NCBI RefSeq assembly: GCF_055900595.2
Contig: NZ_CM148325.1
Reading direction: 5' to 3' (one strand)
Length of the DNA: 64,000 bases
The position numbers were made by a program, and so were the translations under genes. Each line of letters starts with the position of its first letter. Position 1 is the stretch's first letter. Positions 21,424 to 50,509 of this stretch are shown in pieces. Below the pieces are notes generated by a model that made no database searches, was not told the DNA's origin, and saw only the letters and a list, made by a program, of their open reading frames with translations.

Positions 21424-21648
21424 TCAGTGTTTTATTACCTTAATCTTTTTACGGCATTCTTCAGCTCTTGCGCATGCTATTTTTTCACCTGTTTCATAAC
21501 ATTGCTGGCAGCCTAATCCAAATTTCATCGCCATATCATAACCTTCCCGAAAACCTCGGAACCACGCGTTACGAAGGTATTCATCATATTCCCCGTAGTC
21601 AATAATAACCATTTTATTTTCATGGGATTTTCCGGTATTCTCACTCAT
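21424..21648 (-). CDS. Small hypothetical protein (~74 aa, Cys-containing)
   Basis: Internal ATG at 21648 preceded by a GAGG ribosome-binding site; MSENTGKSHENKMVIIDYGEYDEYLRNAWFRGFREGYDMAMKFGLGCQQCYETGEKIACARAEECRKKIKVIKH; no family recognised. Confidence 0.25.
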   Translation of the reverse strand: MSENTGKSHENKMVIIDYGEYDEYLRNAWFRGFREGYDMAMKFGLGCQQCYETGEKIACARAEECRKKIKVIKH

Positions 21649-24149: not shown

Positions 24150-25391
24150 CTAGAACACGACACGGTCGATATAACTGAAGACTTTGGCCTTAAAATCAAC
24201 GAACTGATAGAACATGGCCCAGCCTTTCAGTTTTCGGTTGAGTTGTTTAGCCATATCGACTTTGCTTTCACTGTAGTTGCCTGATAACAGTGCTGTCAGC
24301 GATGCGGCGAAGTTTCTGGCTTTCTCCAGCGGGATCGTTGAGACCACTTGCATCTCGCCATAACGACTGCGTTTGCGAATGATCCTGTGCCCCAGAAAGA
24401 TAAAGCCGTCATTAACATGGGTGATTTTAGTCTTATCCATGTTCAGCCTGAGTTTCAGACTGCCTTCGAGCACACCCCGACACTCCTCCCTGATGGCTTC
24501 CGCCTGTGCTTTGGTGCCTTTGACGATGAGGACAAAATCATCGGCATAGCGGCAGTACGCCACCGCGGGTTTCCACTGCCAGTTTTCTCTGACCGCCGTA
24601 CTTCGGCCCCGTTGGATACTGTTATTCCAGTACCACCGATCTTTTCTTGCTTTCCCGCTCAGGTAGCGCTCATGCAGGTATTGATCGAACTCATTCAGCA
24701 TGATGTTCGACAATAGCGGCGATATAACACCGCCCTGTGGCACACCTTCACTGGCCGCCCGAAAGAGACCGACATCGATATGTCCCGCCTTGATGGTTTT
24801 CCACAGCAGAGTCATGAAACGTGCGTCACTGATCCTGCGGCGTACAGCCTTCATCAGCAGTCGATGATGTACGGTGTCGAAGTAACTGGACAGGTCGCCT
24901 TCAATCACCCAGCGTCCCCGGGTTTCACCGCAGTCGGTGAGCTGTAATTTCACCGTGCGGATCGAGTGGTGGACACTGCGCTCAGGCCGGAAGCCATATG
25001 AGAGCGTATGAAAATCACTCTCCCATATCGGCTCCATCGCCATCAGCATGGCCCGCTGAACAATACGATCCCGCAACGCGGGGATACCCAGTGGTCGCAG
25101 TTTGCCATTGCTTTTAGGGATGTAAACCCGCCTGGCGGGCAAGGGCTGGTAGTGGCCTGAGAGTAATTCATCCCTGAGGATTTGCAGCTCAACAGCCAGT
25201 CTGGCCTGTAGCATTGTTTTGTTCACGCCATCAACACCGGGGGTATTCGCCCCCTTTGATGAAAGCGTGATCCGCGCCGCTTCAGCCAGCCATTCTGGTT
25301 GTGTTATCAGACGCAGCAGCCGTTGAATCCGTAGGGACGGATCGGTGGCTGCCCATGTGGCAAGCTTGCGTTGCATTTCGCTGATTATCAA
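24150..25391 (-). CDS. Group II intron-encoded reverse transcriptase/maturase
   Basis: 413-aa ORF with RT motifs (LRPLGIPALRDRIVQ, YADDFVLIV) and a following maturase-like region. Confidence 0.8.
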   Translation of the reverse strand: MIISEMQRKLATWAATDPSLRIQRLLRLITQPEWLAEAARITLSSKGANTPGVDGVNKTMLQARLAVELQILRDELLSGHYQPLPARRVYIPKSNGKLRPLGIPALRDRIVQRAMLMAMEPIWESDFHTLSYGFRPERSVHHSIRTVKLQLTDCGETRGRWVIEGDLSSYFDTVHHRLLMKAVRRRISDARFMTLLWKTIKAGHIDVGLFRAASEGVPQGGVISPLLSNIMLNEFDQYLHERYLSGKARKDRWYWNNSIQRGRSTAVRENWQWKPAVAYCRYADDFVLIVKGTKAQAEAIREECRGVLEGSLKLRLNMDKTKITHVNDGFIFLGHRIIRKRSRYGEMQVVSTIPLEKARNFAASLTALLSGNYSESKVDMAKQLNRKLKGWAMFYQFVDFKAKVFSYIDRVVF

Positions 25392-28502: not shown

Positions 28503-29729
28503 ATGTCAGGAACTATACGAAAGATAATAAAAGAGGATGATGTATTTCATTCTTCTATTCGCCGTATTGAATGGTTGTTTGAAACATTCTCTTCTGTCTG
28601 TTTGTCTTTTTCCGGAGGAAAAGACTCCACTGTGCTGCTCCATCTTGCGGCTGATGTGGCTCGCAGGAAGAAACGTCGTTTCTCTGTATTATTCATTGAC
28701 TGGGAAGCTCAGTATCAGTGCACCATTGAACATGTTCAGAAGATGCGGGAAATGTACCGGGATGTGACGGATACCTTTTACTGGGTGGCACTCCCCCTGA
28801 CTACGGTAAATGGTGTCTCTCAGTTTCAGCCGGAATGGATATGCTGGGAACCAGGTGTGGAGTGGGTTCGTCAGCCACCAGATGACGCTATTACAGATAT
28901 GTCGTATTTCCCATTTTATCGGTATGCCATGACGTTTGAAGAATTTGTTCCGGCATTTTCTTCCTGGTTTGCCGGTAACCGGTGTGGAGTGGCAATACTG
29001 ACTGGTGTTCGTGCTGATGAATCGCTCAATCGCTTTATGGGACTGGTGTCTCAGCGCAAACTGAGATATGCAGATGATAAACCCTGGACCACAGCGTCAC
29101 CTGAAGGGTTTTATTACACCTTGTATCCGTTGTATGACTGGAAAGCCCGTGATATATGGATATATAACGCCAGAACCCGGGCTATCTACAATCCCCTGTA
29201 TGACCTGATGTACCGTGCCGGCGTGCCGTTACGCAACATGCGGGTCTGTGAGCCTTTTGGCCCGGAACAGCGTAAGGGACTGTGGCTTTACCATGTTCTG
29301 GAGCCGGAAACCTGGGCCAGGATGTGTGAGCGGGTGTCGGGTGCTGCCAGCGGGGCGCTTTATGCCAATGAGAGCGGTGCCTATTTTGCCCTGCGTAAGC
29401 GTATCACGAAGCCACCTCATCATACCTGGCGTAGCTATGCGATGTTCCTGCTGGATGTGATGCCGGAAAGAACGGCAGAACATTACCGTAATAAAATTGC
29501 TGTCTACCTGCGCTGGTATCAGACGCGGGGCTTCCCGGATGACATCCCGGATGAACAGGAGAATGACCTGGGGAGCCGGGATATCCCGTCCTGGCGACGT
29601 ATCTGTAAGACACTCATAAAGAATGATTTCTGGTGTCGGACCCTCTCCTTCAGTCCGAACAAACCCCGGCACTATGAACGTTATCTGCAGCGTATGAAAG
29701 AAAGGAGGAAGGAATGGGGGATTCTGTGA
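28503..29729 (+). CDS. ibrA: IbrA-like PAPS-reductase-family protein (PP-loop ATP pyrophosphatase fold with C-terminal extension)
   Basis: 408-aa ORF with PP-loop motif SFSGGKDS near the N-terminus, preceded by a ~500 bp AT-rich leader; stop overlaps the start of the ParB-like gene. Confidence 0.7.
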   Translation: MSGTIRKIIKEDDVFHSSIRRIEWLFETFSSVCLSFSGGKDSTVLLHLAADVARRKKRRFSVLFIDWEAQYQCTIEHVQKMREMYRDVTDTFYWVALPLTTVNGVSQFQPEWICWEPGVEWVRQPPDDAITDMSYFPFYRYAMTFEEFVPAFSSWFAGNRCGVAILTGVRADESLNRFMGLVSQRKLRYADDKPWTTASPEGFYYTLYPLYDWKARDIWIYNARTRAIYNPLYDLMYRAGVPLRNMRVCEPFGPEQRKGLWLYHVLEPETWARMCERVSGAASGALYANESGAYFALRKRITKPPHHTWRSYAMFLLDVMPERTAEHYRNKIAVYLRWYQTRGFPDDIPDEQENDLGSRDIPSWRRICKTLIKNDFWCRTLSFSPNKPRHYERYLQRMKERRKEWGIL

Positions 29730-30358
29730 CACCTGAGGTGGAAGTATTGAGCAACATGATTCGACAGTACTTCAGTCAGGAACGATCTGAAGAAGAGACC
29801 ATACGAGCCCTTAATCATCTGCGCAGGGTGTTGCATGAGGTCAGCCCTTTTGCACAGGAGCCTGTGGATTGTGTGTTGTGGGTGAAAGCGGATGAGGTGG
29901 TGGCCAACGATTACAATCCCAATGTCATGTCTTCCAGTGAAAAAAAACTGCTTAAACATTCACTGGAGCAGGATGGATTCACGCAGCCTGTGGTGGTTTC
30001 GGAAGAGAAGGAGCATTATCTGGTCGTGGATGGTTTTCATCGTCAGTTGCTGGGCAGGAAAGCGGATACGAGAAAACGTCTGAAGGGCTGGCTGCCAGTG
30101 GCCTGTATTAATCCAGAGAGAAAGGGACAGGCATCACGTATTGCCGCAACCATACGGCATAACCGTGCCAGGGGAAAACACCAGGTAACGTCAATGTCTG
30201 ACATTGTCAGGGACCTCTCACGTCTGGGCTGGACAGATGAGCGTATTGGCACAGAGTTGGGCATGGACCAGGATGAAGTGCTGAGGCTGAAACAGATTAG
30301 CGGGCTGACAGAGCTGTTTCAGGAAGAGGATTTCAGCCCTGCATGGACGGTTCGTTAA
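29714..30358 (+). CDS. ibrB: IbrB-like ParB/Srx-fold (ParB N-terminal nuclease-like domain) protein
   Basis: 214-aa ORF overlapping ibrA by 16 nt; region ...YLVVDGFHRQ... resembles the ParB N-terminal domain; C-terminal region HTH-like. Confidence 0.65.
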   Translation: MGDSVTPEVEVLSNMIRQYFSQERSEEETIRALNHLRRVLHEVSPFAQEPVDCVLWVKADEVVANDYNPNVMSSSEKKLLKHSLEQDGFTQPVVVSEEKEHYLVVDGFHRQLLGRKADTRKRLKGWLPVACINPERKGQASRIAATIRHNRARGKHQVTSMSDIVRDLSRLGWTDERIGTELGMDQDEVLRLKQISGLTELFQEEDFSPAWTVR

Positions 30359-37681: not shown

Positions 37682-37885
<204 letters not shown>

Positions 37886-38538
37886 TGAACTGAATTTACT
37901 TTGAAAAAATGTAAAAACATTTAAATCATAGCCAGAAGCCGCGATTATTCAGTGCTTCTCATTTTATATTTTCTGCAAATTTATATGTGGTATAAAATAA
38001 CACCCTTGTCATTCAGGTATAAAATATCATCATCGTACAGTAAAGGATATATAAATATAAAATTATACTATTCAAAATATGGTGCATTCTTATTCATGAT
38101 AGGAATACTTAGAACATCATTTTTTCATTGTAGACCATGATTTCGGATTTGAAAAGTTCCTTCCCCAGTAATCTCTAGTTTTTATTCTCAATTCAACCCA
38201 ACTCTTCCCTATACAAACTAAAAAACATTGTTCTATTGATAGATACTTCTCAGTAATCAGATAAAAAACTATAATATTGCTGTGCATGATGTACATATTT
38301 AAAATGTCATGAGTACATCCCTTTTATTTGAAAAACAAACTAAAAGAAATCACTTAAATAAAATGTTTTTATATCGTGGTATTTAAGAAAACTTATATCA
38401 AAAAATAAGATATTGACCTTTATTTAAAATTAGATTAGATTGCAAAGATAAGAATACGTGTGATTATTTCTTTAAACACCTGTAAAAATTTATTAGAGCA
38501 TAGTTATATTATTGAACATTGTATTGCTTAGGTAAGGT

Positions 38539-39798
38539 ATGCTGGTATCTAACTATAATTATGTAATCAGCCGTCGTCGTTTACTGCAAGGTGCGGGCGC
38601 CATGTGGCTATTGAGCGTAAGTCAGGTCAGCCTGGCTGCGGTCAGCCAGGTCGTGGCGGTACGCGTCTGGCCTGCGTCCAGCTACACCCGCGTGACGGTA
38701 GAATCAAATCGTCAGCTGCAATATAAGCAGTTCGCGTTAAGTAACCCTGAACGTGTGGTGGTGGATATCGAAGATGTAAACCTGAACTCGGTACTCAAGG
38801 GGATGGCGGCACAAATTCGTGCAGACGACCCGTTCATCAAGTCGGCGCGCGTCGGGCAATTTGACCCGCAAACCGTACGCATGGTTTTTGAATTAAAGCA
38901 AAACGTAAAACCGCAGCTGTTTGCCCTTGCGCCGGTCGCCGGGTTTAAAGAGCGTCTGGTGATGGACCTCTATCCGGCCAATGCACAGGATATGCAGGAC
39001 CCGCTGCTGGCGCTGCTGGAGGATTACAACAAAGGCGACCTCGAAAAGCAGGTGCCGCCAGCACAAAGTGGTCCACAACCGGGTAAAGCAGGGCGTGATC
39101 GTCCGATTGTCATTATGCTTGACCCCGGCCACGGTGGCGAAGACCCCGGTGCGGTGGGGAAATACAAAACACGCGAAAAAGACGTGGTATTGCAAATAGC
39201 TCGCCGTCTGCGCTCTCTGATCGAAAAAGAGGGTAATATGAAGGTGTACATGACGCGCAATGAAGACATCTTCATTCCGTTGCAAGTGCGTGTAGCAAAA
39301 GCACAGAAACAACGTGCTGACCTTTTTGTTTCTATCCATGCTGATGCCTTTACCAGTCGCCAGCCGAGCGGTTCTTCCGTGTTTGCGCTTTCGACCAAAG
39401 GCGCGACAAGTACTGCGGCAAAATATCTGGCACAAACCCAGAACGCCTCGGACTTGATTGGCGGCGTGAGCAAAAGCGGTGACCGCTATGTCGACCACAC
39501 CATGTTCGATATGGTGCAGTCTCTGACCATTGCCGACAGCCTGAAGTTGGGTAAAGCGGTGCTGAATAAGCTCGGTAAAATCAACAAGCTGCATAAAAAT
39601 CAGGTTGAACAGGCCGGGTTTGCCGTGCTGAAAGCACCTGATATTCCCTCCATTCTGGTCGAAACGGCGTTTATCAGTAACGTTGAGGAAGAGCGCAAAC
39701 TGAAAACGGCAAGATTCCAACAACAAGTGGCAGAATCTATCCTAGAGGGAATTAAAGAGTATTTTTCGGATATAGACGCGTTAGCGAGAAAAGCATAA
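38539..39798 (+). CDS. amiC: N-acetylmuramoyl-L-alanine amidase AmiC (Tat-exported)
   Basis: 419-aa ORF; twin-arginine signal [27 protein letters not shown] domain and amidase_3 catalytic domain; sequence recognised as E. coli AmiC apart from the first ~10 residues. Confidence 0.85.
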
Positions 39799-39959
39799 TT
39801 TAAAAATGTTTAATATTCTATGTTCTCGGTCATATTTTATTAATTTGGATGAATATATGCTGTTAGTGCTGTATTCTCCGTTTGGATACACCTTTACCTT
39901 AGCGATATAGTTGTGTTATTCATATATAAATATGCCCCGTTTTAATTCCATGCATTTTT

Positions 39960-40700
39960 ATATCTTGGTCAAATAATGGTGTCGTCGATATTCTTCCAGC
40001 GTCTTATTGTTCAGTGATTCATGTGTGCGTTCATAGCTATATTCTGATAACCATTTCTCCGTAATTTCTAGAACTTCATTCAGCGTTCTGAACAGATAAA
40101 AATCGAGTATTTCTGTACGGTGTGTCCTGTTAAAACGCCCAATAAAAGCGTTCTACGTCAGCTTACCCGGCTGGATAAACTCCCGTTTTACTGCGTGTAT
40201 ATCAGCCCATTCAGCCAGCGTTAGAGAGATAAATTCCGAACCATTATCTATGCGCAGCATGACCGGATAACTGCGATTTGCCGCGAACCTGCTGCCTCAG
40301 AACCTGAAAAAGTTTTGAAAAACCGTATCGAGGATATCGCTCGTCCACTGCCTGCACCACCACAATAACGGGGTCGTACCACGTGGTATCCGGACGGTAA
40401 TGGGAAACCGTTCTGCTCTGGTTCAGACTCCGGCAGGCCTGATGGACACTGAGTCCAAATGTCGTTATCTGATGAGTAACAAGCTCACGCTTACAGGCTG
40501 GTTTTAAAGCTTTTTTCGATAATGTCTTTCAATGCCGGTTCTCTAGGCTAAGGTCGGCAAGCATCTGTTTTGGACGTCGGTTCTCGTCCTCAAGATCCTC
40601 GTTCTTTTTAATATCAGGTGACTCTATGCATCGTATCTGGGCTTCCAGTTCATGGAATGGAGTACCCCCTCCTTTTGCGGTTAACTGTACGAAATGCACT
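39960..40700 (-). pseudogene. Degenerate IS3-family transposase remnant
   Basis: Reverse-strand translation gives integrase-core-like stretches (...FIQPGKLT.NAFIGRFNRTHRTEILDFYLFRTLNEV...) broken by several stops; no ORF >60 aa. Confidence 0.3.
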
Positions 40701-48421: not shown

Positions 48422-50509
48422 ATGCGAGTAACCACTCTGGCTTCAGTAGCCATCCCTTGTCTCGGGTTTTCAGTCAGCAGTATGGCTGCGGAAGATGTGA
48501 TGGTAGTCACGGCGTCTGGCTATGAAAAAAAATTAACCAGTGCAGCTGCGAGTGTTTCAGTGATCAGCCAGGAGGATTTGCGATCCAGCCAGTATCATGA
48601 TCTGGGGGAGGCACTGAGATCCGTAGAGGGGGTGGATGTTGAAAGCGGTACGGGTAAAACAGGTGGGCTGGAAATCAGCATCCGCGGAATGCCTGCCAGT
48701 TATACGCTGATACTGATCGATGGTGTCCGTCAGGGCGGGAGCAGTGACGTAACCCCAAACGGTTATGCTGCCATGAATACGGGTTTTATGCCACCTCTGG
48801 CCGCCATCGAACGTATTGAGATTATCAGGGGCCCCATGTCCACTCTGTACGGCTCTGATGCCATGGGGGGCGTGGTGAATATCATCACCAAAAAGAATGC
48901 AGACAAATGGCGCTCTTCGGTTAATGCCGGGCTGAACCTGCAGGAAAGTAACAAATGGGGGAACAGCAGCCAGTTTAATTTCTGGAGCAGCGGTCCCCTT
49001 GTGGATGATTCACTCAGCCTTCAGGTACGTGGCAGCACACAGCAGCGTCAGGGCTCATCGGTCACATCACTGAGCGACACCTCAGCTACGCGTATCCCTT
49101 ATCCCACGGAATCACAGAATTATAATGCAGGTGGTCGTCTTGACTGGAAAGCGACGGACAAGGATGTACTCTGGATTGATATGGATATCGCCCGGCAGCG
49201 TTATGATAACCGAGATGGCCAGCTGGGCAGTCTGACGGGCGGTTATGATCGCACCCTGCGCTATGAGCGTAATAAAATTTCAGCAGGCTATGATCATACA
49301 TTCACCTTCGGAGCCTGGAAGTCATCCCTGAACTGGAATGAGACGGAAAATAAAGGCCGTCAGCTTGTACGTAGCGTACTGCAGCGTGATAAATGGGGGC
49401 TTGCCGGCCAGCCGAGGGAGCTTAAGGAGTCGAATCTTATCCTGAGCTCATTACTGTTTGCACCTCTGGGGGAATCACACAAGGTTACCGTCGGTGGTGA
49501 GTATCAGAACTCCTCCATGAAAGACGGGGTTGTTCTCGCCAGTACTGGTGAAACCTTCCGTCAGAAAAGCTGGTCGGCATTTGTTGAGGATGAGTGGTAT
49601 ATCACGGATGCATTTGCACTGACTGCGGGTAGCCGCTATGAACGCTATGAGGTGTTCGGAGGACACTTCAGTCCCCGGGCATATATGGTCTGGGATGTGA
49701 CTGATGCGTGGACGCTGAAAGGTGGGGTGACCACGGGATATAAGGCGCCCAGCATGGGGCAGTTACATAAGGGGATCAGCGGTGTGTCCGGTCAGGGGCG
49801 TACGAATCTTCTCGGTAACCCGGACCTGAAGCCGGAGGAGAGTGTCAGTTATGAAGCGGGCGTGTATTACGATAATCATGCCGGTCTGAACGCCAATATC
49901 ACGGGCTTTATGACAGAATTCTCCAACAAGATCGTATCTTATTCCATTGATGATAATACCCGCAGCTACACAAACAGCGGAAAGGCTAGGACTCAGGGCG
50001 TGGAATTTGCCGGCACACTGCCTCTGTTGTCAGAGGATGTGACTCTGTCTCTGAATTATACCTGGACGCAGAGTGAACAACGGGATGGGGATAATAAAGG
50101 TGCACCACTGAGTTACACCCCTGAGCATATGGTGAATGCGAAACTGAACTGGCAGATTACTGAAGAGGTGACATCATGGCTGGGTGCCCGTTACCGCGGG
50201 AAAACGCCACGTTTCACCCAGAATTATTCGTCACTCTCAGCTGTACAGAAGAAAGTGTATGATGAGAAAGGTGAATATCTGAAAGCCTGGACGGTACTGG
50301 ATGCGGGCATGTCGTGGAAAGTGACGGATGCACTGATGCTGAATGCAGCGGTGAATAATGTGCTTAACAAGGATTACAGTGACGTAAGTCTGTATCGTGC
50401 CGGCAGTGGTACGCTTTATGCGGGTGATTACTTCCAGACGGGGGCATCGACAACGGGTTATGTGATACCTGAGAGAAATTACTGGATGTCGCTGAACTAT
50501 CAGTTCTGA
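48422..50509 (+). CDS. iha: Iha (IrgA-homologue adhesin), TonB-dependent catecholate-siderophore-receptor-type outer-membrane protein
   Basis: 695-aa ORF, signal peptide, plug and 22-strand barrel features, C-terminal ...YQF; sequence recognised as Iha. Confidence 0.85.
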   Translation: MRVTTLASVAIPCLGFSVSSMAAEDVMVVTASGYEKKLTSAAASVSVISQEDLRSSQYHDLGEALRSVEGVDVESGTGKTGGLEISIRGMPASYTLILIDGVRQGGSSDVTPNGYAAMNTGFMPPLAAIERIEIIRGPMSTLYGSDAMGGVVNIITKKNADKWRSSVNAGLNLQESNKWGNSSQFNFWSSGPLVDDSLSLQVRGSTQQRQGSSVTSLSDTSATRIPYPTESQNYNAGGRLDWKATDKDVLWIDMDIARQRYDNRDGQLGSLTGGYDRTLRYERNKISAGYDHTFTFGAWKSSLNWNETENKGRQLVRSVLQRDKWGLAGQPRELKESNLILSSLLFAPLGESHKVTVGGEYQNSSMKDGVVLASTGETFRQKSWSAFVEDEWYITDAFALTAGSRYERYEVFGGHFSPRAYMVWDVTDAWTLKGGVTTGYKAPSMGQLHKGISGVSGQGRTNLLGNPDLKPEESVSYEAGVYYDNHAGLNANITGFMTEFSNKIVSYSIDDNTRSYTNSGKARTQGVEFAGTLPLLSEDVTLSLNYTWTQSEQRDGDNKGAPLSYTPEHMVNAKLNWQITEEVTSWLGARYRGKTPRFTQNYSSLSAVQKKVYDEKGEYLKAWTVLDAGMSWKVTDALMLNAAVNNVLNKDYSDVSLYRAGSGTLYAGDYFQTGASTTGYVIPERNYWMSLNYQF

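Follow-up and report, generated by a model that had tools for sequence, protein, structure and literature searches.

A second, island-borne amiC gene of Escherichia coli is a mosaic of diverged and E. coli-like segments

The gene amiC2 (38539-39798, + strand; a name introduced here for the island copy) is an additional copy of the amidase gene amiC that lies in a large virulence island of E. coli, with the native amiC still present elsewhere on the chromosome, and it is a mosaic along which the divergence from native alleles changes abruptly and significantly. We consider it likely that amiC2 is an accessory amiC with an old, AT-rich homologous backbone in which two tracts were overwritten by E. 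coli amiC, encoding an AmiC-like product; the direction and the mechanism of this conversion are what we infer from the pattern. All positions refer, unless a genome is named, to the window, i.e., the whole stretch of 64,000 nucleotides of contig NZ_CM148325.1 that was analysed.

A megablast search of 5,426 complete E. coli genomes with window positions 37700-40300 as query detected the whole 2.6-kb locus in 57 of them (about 1%) at 99.8-100% identity, in all 57 cases on the chromosome and annotated as amiC. The remaining genomes matched only at 38562-39771, with ca. 95% identity and within their native amiC. We then joined the upstream region specific to the island and the native argA-amiC junction into one chimeric query, which tests all carriers at once, and found both places in 57/57 carriers and the native place only in the other matching genomes (5,482 places in total, i.e., 5,425 + 57). 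Because every carrier also holds the native argA-amiC junction, the window gene is a second copy. In strain SMS-3-5, native amiC is intact at 3036388-3037641, divergent from argA (the intact pair spans 3036388-3039204) and near three tRNA-Met genes, and the island copy is found about 190 kb away at 3227446-3228705. The synteny that marks the native locus, with argA divergent on one side and metZWV or the metV island downstream, is absent around the window gene. Among the matches listed, the IS-rich neighborhood is the same at 10/10 amiC2 places, and an assembly collection lists the exact amiC2 protein in 1,829 indexed blocks. Chickens or chicken meat are the source of about half of the carrier records and humans of about a quarter, though several chicken records agree in record length and are maybe not independent strains.

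The preliminary description of this DNA had proposed a recombination joint that gives amiC a new promoter and start. A native amiC rearranged by recombination or IS elements, with its argA-side neighborhood, promoter and start codon replaced, would indeed account for upstream DNA that bears no relation to the argA-amiC intergenic region and has IS fragments at its border. We nonetheless give this reading next to no probability, given the intact native junction elsewhere on the chromosome of all 57 carriers (about 190 kb off in SMS-3-5), a 3' end and 3' flank that are likewise non-native, and a start region that has diverged from its native homologue but was not substituted; it was rejected based on the chimeric-query search and a direct reading of the native SMS-3-5 locus. 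What stands of the proposed joint is a true discontinuity near codon 9, though not in the native amiC neighborhood, as the gene is an extra island copy. Similarly, the upstream DNA and hence any promoter are foreign to the native locus, but the start is a diverged homologous end of which the Shine-Dalgarno sequence, the ATG and codons 1-9 all align with their native counterparts. As to whether a reference alignment shows the region to be native for its lineage, this holds insofar as all carriers conserve the locus at 99.5-100% identity, but they do so as an accessory locus.

AmiC is a Tat-exported septal N-acetylmuramoyl-L-alanine amidase that is autoinhibited and activated by NlpD. The intact open reading frame of amiC2 encodes 419 amino acids, compared to 417 for native AmiC, with a Tat signal followed by an AMIN septal-targeting domain (38656-38970, + strand; PF11741, residues 40-144, E = 2e-21) and an Amidase_3 domain (39112-39756, + strand; PF01520, residues 192-406, E = 6.9e-52 with full profile coverage) in a Pfam search of the protein. 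The preliminary description was thus right that the AmiC body and the Tat signal with its twin-arginine motif are retained, and alignment with native AmiC also confirmed its observation that the first ca. nine residues (MLVSNYNYV) differ from the native start. From the Ile preceding the Tat motif onward, the signal peptide is native, and only the n-region differs. The E. coli AmiC structure 4BIN aligns with amiC2 residues 36-418 (E = 8e-241) and differs from amiC2 residues 36-390 at only three positions, where Q, P and L replace K, S and F. Over residues 10-386, amiC2 likewise differs from native AmiC (WP_000016907.1) at three positions, and divergence of the protein is concentrated in the first nine and the last ca. 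30 residues. The Ser-to-Pro change lies directly after the GHGGED motif, and Pro is the residue that E. coli AmiB carries there (GHGGQDPGA). AmiA and AmiB belong to the same catalytic family but are ancient, highly diverged paralogues at core loci (E = 8e-65 and 8e-49 against amiC2, compared to 8e-241 for AmiC). RefSeq annotates the locus as amiC (WP_000961389.1 / WP_000961390.1). Judged by Amidase_3, AMIN, the Tat motif and the conserved catalytic, zinc-binding and autoinhibitory regions, amiC2 is a member of the AmiC family by sequence and is best filed as an accessory AmiC paralogue.

At the nucleotide level, pairwise alignment places the start of homology with the native SMS-3-5 locus ca. 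13 nt before the ATG (TTGCTTAGGTAAGGTATG in amiC2 vs TTGCTCGGGAGAGGCATG in the native gene) and its end at the stop codon (GCGAGAAAAGCATAA vs GCGAGAAGGGGATAA). Five segments can be distinguished in between, and we scored as paralog-unique every base that is unlike all five native alleles sampled from different strains. The diverged head (38526-38565, + strand) comprises the Shine-Dalgarno sequence, the ATG and codons 1-9 of the Tat n-region; it is 62% identical to every Escherichia native amiC and carries a 6-nt insertion, while the natives are 97-100% identical among themselves there. Just before and at the ATG, 13/18 bases match the native gene. All 13 differences of the head fall on the paralog branch and nine of them are GC-to-AT changes, in a region where the native peptide MSGSNTAISRRRLL is invariant in Escherichia.

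The head is followed by E. coli-like tract A (38566-39290, + strand), a putative conversion tract with 97.4% identity to the native alleles of O91 RM7190 and W3110, only 11 paralog-unique sites in 725 bp (0.015 per base) and a GC3 of 0.61 that equals the ca. 0.6 of the natives. An internal diverged patch (39291-39410, + strand) is AT-shifted, with a GC3 of 0.40 vs about 0.6 in the natives, and at most 89% identical to any Escherichia amiC; it holds 12 paralog-unique sites in 120 bp (0.100 per base) compared to 14 in the other 1010 bp of the core (Fisher p = 3e-6), and its differences are all synonymous. The second putative conversion tract, tract B (39411 to ca. 39710, + strand), is again E. 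coli-like with 97.9% identity to the O91 RM7190 native allele over 39411-39695, three paralog-unique sites in 285 bp (0.011 per base) and a GC3 of 0.62 (natives ca. 0.6). A maximum chi-square test sets the 3' breakpoint at 39711, where the diverged, AT-rich tail of the last ca. 29 codons and the stop begins (39711-39798, + strand). Scored over 39696-39798, the tail is ca. 74% identical to native amiC with 25 paralog-unique sites in 103 bp (0.243 per base; Fisher p = 4e-18), a GC content of 0.39 vs 0.505 and a GC3 of 0.34 vs ca. 0.5 in the natives.

Substitution rates (Nei-Gojobori) follow the same segments. Against the natives, core dS is 0.15-0.24 and core dN 0.0035-0.0046, with the natives differing among themselves by a dS of 0.09-0.20, while the tail reaches a dS of at least 1 and a dN of 0.18 where natives from E. 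coli to Citrobacter have a dN of 0 and an invariant peptide (ILAGIKAYFADGATLARRG); the contrast between tail and core at synonymous sites is significant (Fisher p = 1.5e-6). Over 1130 bp, the core is 95.6% identical to E. coli, compared to 93.6% for Escherichia sp. MOD1-EC7003, 92.0% for E. whittamii and 89.2% for E. albertii. Many core polymorphisms of the E. coli-like tracts are common to particular native alleles, and the tracts retain about 1.1-1.5% unique differences; the exact donor allele is not among the sampled natives, of which the best reach 97.4-97.9% in the tracts. An origin of the core from a distinct Escherichia species was considered and dropped, as native E. coli alleles already differ by their dS of 0.09-0.20 and the tracts come as close as 97.4-97.9% to some of them. 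The divergence and high AT content of the 3' end and the 3' flank, the internal patch of 120 bp, and the homology to amiC that both diverged ends of amiC2 still retain had all escaped the preliminary description. As a separate observation on the native gene, the AmiC protein is identical (WP_000016907.1) at 5/5 native loci (K-12 W3110, E2348/69, SMS-3-5, O91 RM7190 and isolate 538), and the silent diversity of native amiC, which lies beside the metV island hotspot, is unusually high despite this very strong protein conservation.

The module around amiC2 begins with a fragment of an IS3-family transposase (37691-37834, + strand), which carries partial IS3-family annotation in strains Ch1 and SMS-3-5 and an rve_3 match (E = 9.2e-6); IS matches cover 37700-37833 in the megablast search, and IS110/IS21 remnants also precede the adjoining AT-rich region. 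This upstream region (37835-38525, + strand; 27% GC), the presumed holder of the promoter, is unique to the locus: the 732-bp upstream sequence was found by blastn only in the 57 carrier genomes, once in each, and was not found among 72,556 plasmids and 50,697 phage records, where a blastn search with the module also gave nothing relevant. The ca. 700-bp 5' flank as a whole (37834-38538) has a GC content of 27.4% and no detectable similarity to the E. coli argA-amiC intergenic region, so that the earlier observation of an AT-rich flank following IS fragments in place of the argA region was well founded. A sensitive blastn search covering amiC with 2 kb on either side in 80 Enterobacteriaceae species found no similarity for the upstream flank, and none on the downstream side past the last ca. 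110 coding bases.

Downstream of the gene, an AT-rich spacer (39799-39922, + strand; 29% GC) in which no intrinsic terminator is predicted on the + strand leads to a second IS3-family transposase pseudogene fragment that forms the right border (39923-40652, - strand). It is annotated as an "integrase core domain" pseudogene, and plasmid IS3 copies match its first part (39923-40291) at 88.7%. Inside this pseudogene, just 3' of amiC2 and on the strand opposite to the transposase frame, lies a full-length match to isrN (RF01396, an Rfam family of Hfq-binding sRNAs) at 40363-40505 (+ strand; 138 bits vs a gathering score of 44, E = 2e-32). The Rfam scan of the amiC2 module gave nothing within 37834-39922, the small open reading frames of the upstream region had no Pfam match, and a search for flanking direct or inverted repeats hinting at a cassette or composite transposon returned short chance-level matches only. 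The upstream region also contains an imperfect, tandem-like direct repeat of 21 nt at 37989-38036 (GGTATAAAATAACACCCTTGT and GGTATAAAATATCATCATCGT, 27 nt apart), which could serve as a binding site for a regulator or have arisen by chance in DNA so rich in AT. In strain Ch1, an IS2 element (20220-21448 of the Ch1 segment) has inserted at the left margin of this AT-rich DNA, at about window position 37840-37860, and the Ch1 locus is otherwise 100% identical to the window.

In the history that we favor, the old backbone would comprise the flanks, the Shine-Dalgarno sequence with codons 1-9, the 120-bp internal patch and the last ca. 30 codons, and it would descend from an amiC homologue that had either long been separated from the Escherichia gene or long resided in AT-rich island DNA. 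Ordinary E. coli amiC would then have been copied into it in two tracts (about 725 bp and 300 bp), most likely through gene conversion of the RecA type with the resident amiC on the chromosome of an E. coli host as the donor; native amiC, a potential donor, is present in the same genome in 57/57 carriers. The outer breakpoints adjoin the most conserved motifs, i.e., the twin-arginine motif SRRRLLQG and a motif on the C-terminal side, at which diverged homologues still share identity.

An account without conversion, in which a whole-gene duplicate or xenologue from an Escherichia-like donor evolved faster at its ends and in the patch under relaxed constraint and AT-biased mutation in an AT-rich island, seems quite unlikely to us. 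It would fit the predominance of GC-to-AT changes on the paralog branch (12/17 in the core, 10/15 in the tail, 9/13 in the head), and no separate donor lineage for the ends was identified. Yet the tail exceeds the core at least 5-fold in synonymous divergence, and relaxed protein constraint cannot explain patch changes that are all synonymous. Relaxed constraint alone also fails to explain the ends, because the native head and tail peptides are invariant (the latter from E. coli to Citrobacter). Moreover, the third positions of the tracts (GC3 of 0.61-0.62) show no AT shift despite lying between AT-shifted segments of the same gene and under the same mutational regime, which excludes relaxed constraint or AT-biased decay across the whole gene, and the flanks have no residual homology to the native flanks.

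The same mosaic would be predicted if E. coli amiC had been captured into the island first and its ends and patch had later been overwritten by a distant AT-rich homologue that has since been lost. This reverse order is the less economical one. In composition, the AT-rich ends pass without a break into unrelated AT-rich flanks (27-29% GC), and three separate incoming tracts would be needed as well as the replacement of both flanks, so that we regard this order as quite unlikely. A retro-copy made via the group II intron reverse transcriptase of the island was considered because homology is confined to the interval from Shine-Dalgarno sequence to stop codon, and was rejected because uniform divergence would be expected.

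Conversion of an old backbone invites a search for its unconverted progenitor, and no relative sharing the ends or flanks of amiC2 was found in E. coli genomes, plasmids, phages, GTDB species representatives or JGI metagenomes. Since no such relative was found, the old backbone is reconstructed from within the one gene. A 26-mer of the head was not found in the GTDB species representatives (one genome per species), and a degenerate pattern of the tail peptide hit two contigs in the JGI metagenomes, both of them the same E. coli locus. A protein search with the tail alone returned only short fragments, with a best non-self match of 81% identity. In alignment, the FQQQ variant of the tail also occurs in Edwardsiella, Proteus and Arsenophonus fragments, a shared feature that may give a weak hint at the source of the tail.

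The island that hosts amiC2 is a large, IS-riddled virulence island of ca. 92 to 96 kb with genes for aerobactin, sitABCD, sodC, ibrAB and iha. In SMS-3-5 (NC_010498.1), it starts at the tRNA-Phe gene pheV (3197159-3197234) with a tyrosine integrase and ends before the kps capsule genes, and its cargo includes iha, ibrAB-like genes, sodC, sitABCD, iucABCD-iutA and many degraded IS elements. This is the GI-pheV of SMS-3-5 (phylogroup F, ST354), described as 91,940 bp at 3197159-3289098 with the most divergent intP4 integrase reported and with no mention of an amidase or amiC (PMC11537424). With the GI-pheV islands of that study, the SMS-3-5 island shares the pheV site, the adjacent tyrosine integrase, iha, sit and aerobactin next to kps (PMC11537424), but in ECCNB12-2, an isolate from chicken (NZ_CP033635.1, 2557416-2653469), the same amiC2 island is flanked by ynjA and ynjB, and a closely named tyrosine integrase adjoins ynjA. 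These placements reflect either two integration sites or a relocation. The 64-kb window holds no tRNA gene, and its cargo, named after the 100% identical annotation of Ch1 and SMS-3-5, comprises aerobactin iucABCD-iutA (5385-11349), sitABCD (13939-17409, - strand), sodC (20771-21295), a group II intron reverse transcriptase pseudogene (24150-25391), a PAPS-reductase/IbrB-like pair (28503-30358), iha (48422-50509) and a PhoX-family protein (58302-60281). Many degraded copies of IS3, IS21, IS66, IS110 and IS630 are scattered among these genes.

We propose an AmiC-like function for amiC2 because of its near-identity to AmiC and the established biology of AmiC. The product is probably a working, Tat-exported septal amidase under foreign regulation. 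Its AMIN domain would direct it to the septum, and it would be kept autoinhibited, be activated by NlpD and cleave septal peptidoglycan in a zinc-dependent manner. The open reading frame is intact in 57/57 complete carrier genomes, the exact protein recurs, and the paralog-unique changes inside the E. coli-like tracts comprise three non-synonymous vs 11 synonymous ones, which supports that function has been retained. Regulation must differ from that of native amiC because the whole upstream region is foreign. Promoter-like hexamers occur at 38247-38275 and 38413-38441, but a comparison with shuffled sequences showed no enrichment of such sites. H-NS typically silences upstream DNA that is rich in AT, and the GC content of 27% makes it plausible that the upstream region of amiC2 is an H-NS target.

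Such silencing, the lack of a significant promoter or terminator prediction and the many degraded IS copies or pseudogenes among its neighbors would all suit a view of amiC2 as a silent, functionless relic that is intact only through recent conversion in an island otherwise full of pseudogenes. We think this unlikely, as it is at odds with the intact open reading frame in all complete carrier genomes, the presence of the exact protein in very many assemblies, the 3:11 ratio of unique non-synonymous to synonymous changes in the converted tracts, and catalytic and AMIN regions that are essentially identical to those of active AmiC.

Concerted evolution of paralogues by gene conversion is familiar from tufA and tufB of Salmonella and E. 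coli. Like that pair, amiC2 and native amiC are unlinked copies with near-identical central tracts, sharp breakpoints and different flanks. Unlike it, they involve an accessory, horizontally acquired partner, a partial and patchy conversion with diverged ends and an old internal patch, and a direction that we infer. A full-text literature search found no paper describing a second, island-borne amiC or its mosaic nature. With its different location (an island locus without divergent argA or adjoining metZWV, and with foreign AT-rich flanks), amiC2 shows that a reading which comes easily to mind is wrong: the strain carries amiC twice, and its core amiC-argA locus has undergone no rearrangement. 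In annotation and pangenome studies, an accessory copy that is 95% identical can be taken for the core gene or merged with it.

While amiC2 opens no new class of system and is a modest evolutionary curiosity, it provides a clean, small example of patchy conversion between a housekeeping gene and an acquired homologue in a virulence island. A more far-reaching idea, to which we assign only a small probability, is that amiC2 is a functional, separately regulated septal amidase (e.g., H-NS-silenced and host-induced) that may aid poultry-associated or extraintestinal E. coli, with recurrent conversion by the native gene refreshing its catalytic body, and the diverged n-region of the signal peptide and C-terminal helix being kept for different export or regulation. 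If amiC2 were indeed such a functional amidase, it would be a xenologue that was acquired horizontally and is maintained by conversion from the host's own orthologue. The finding thus raises the question of whether an extra, differently regulated cell-separation amidase may benefit the about 1% of E. coli that carry it, about half of them from chickens or chicken meat.
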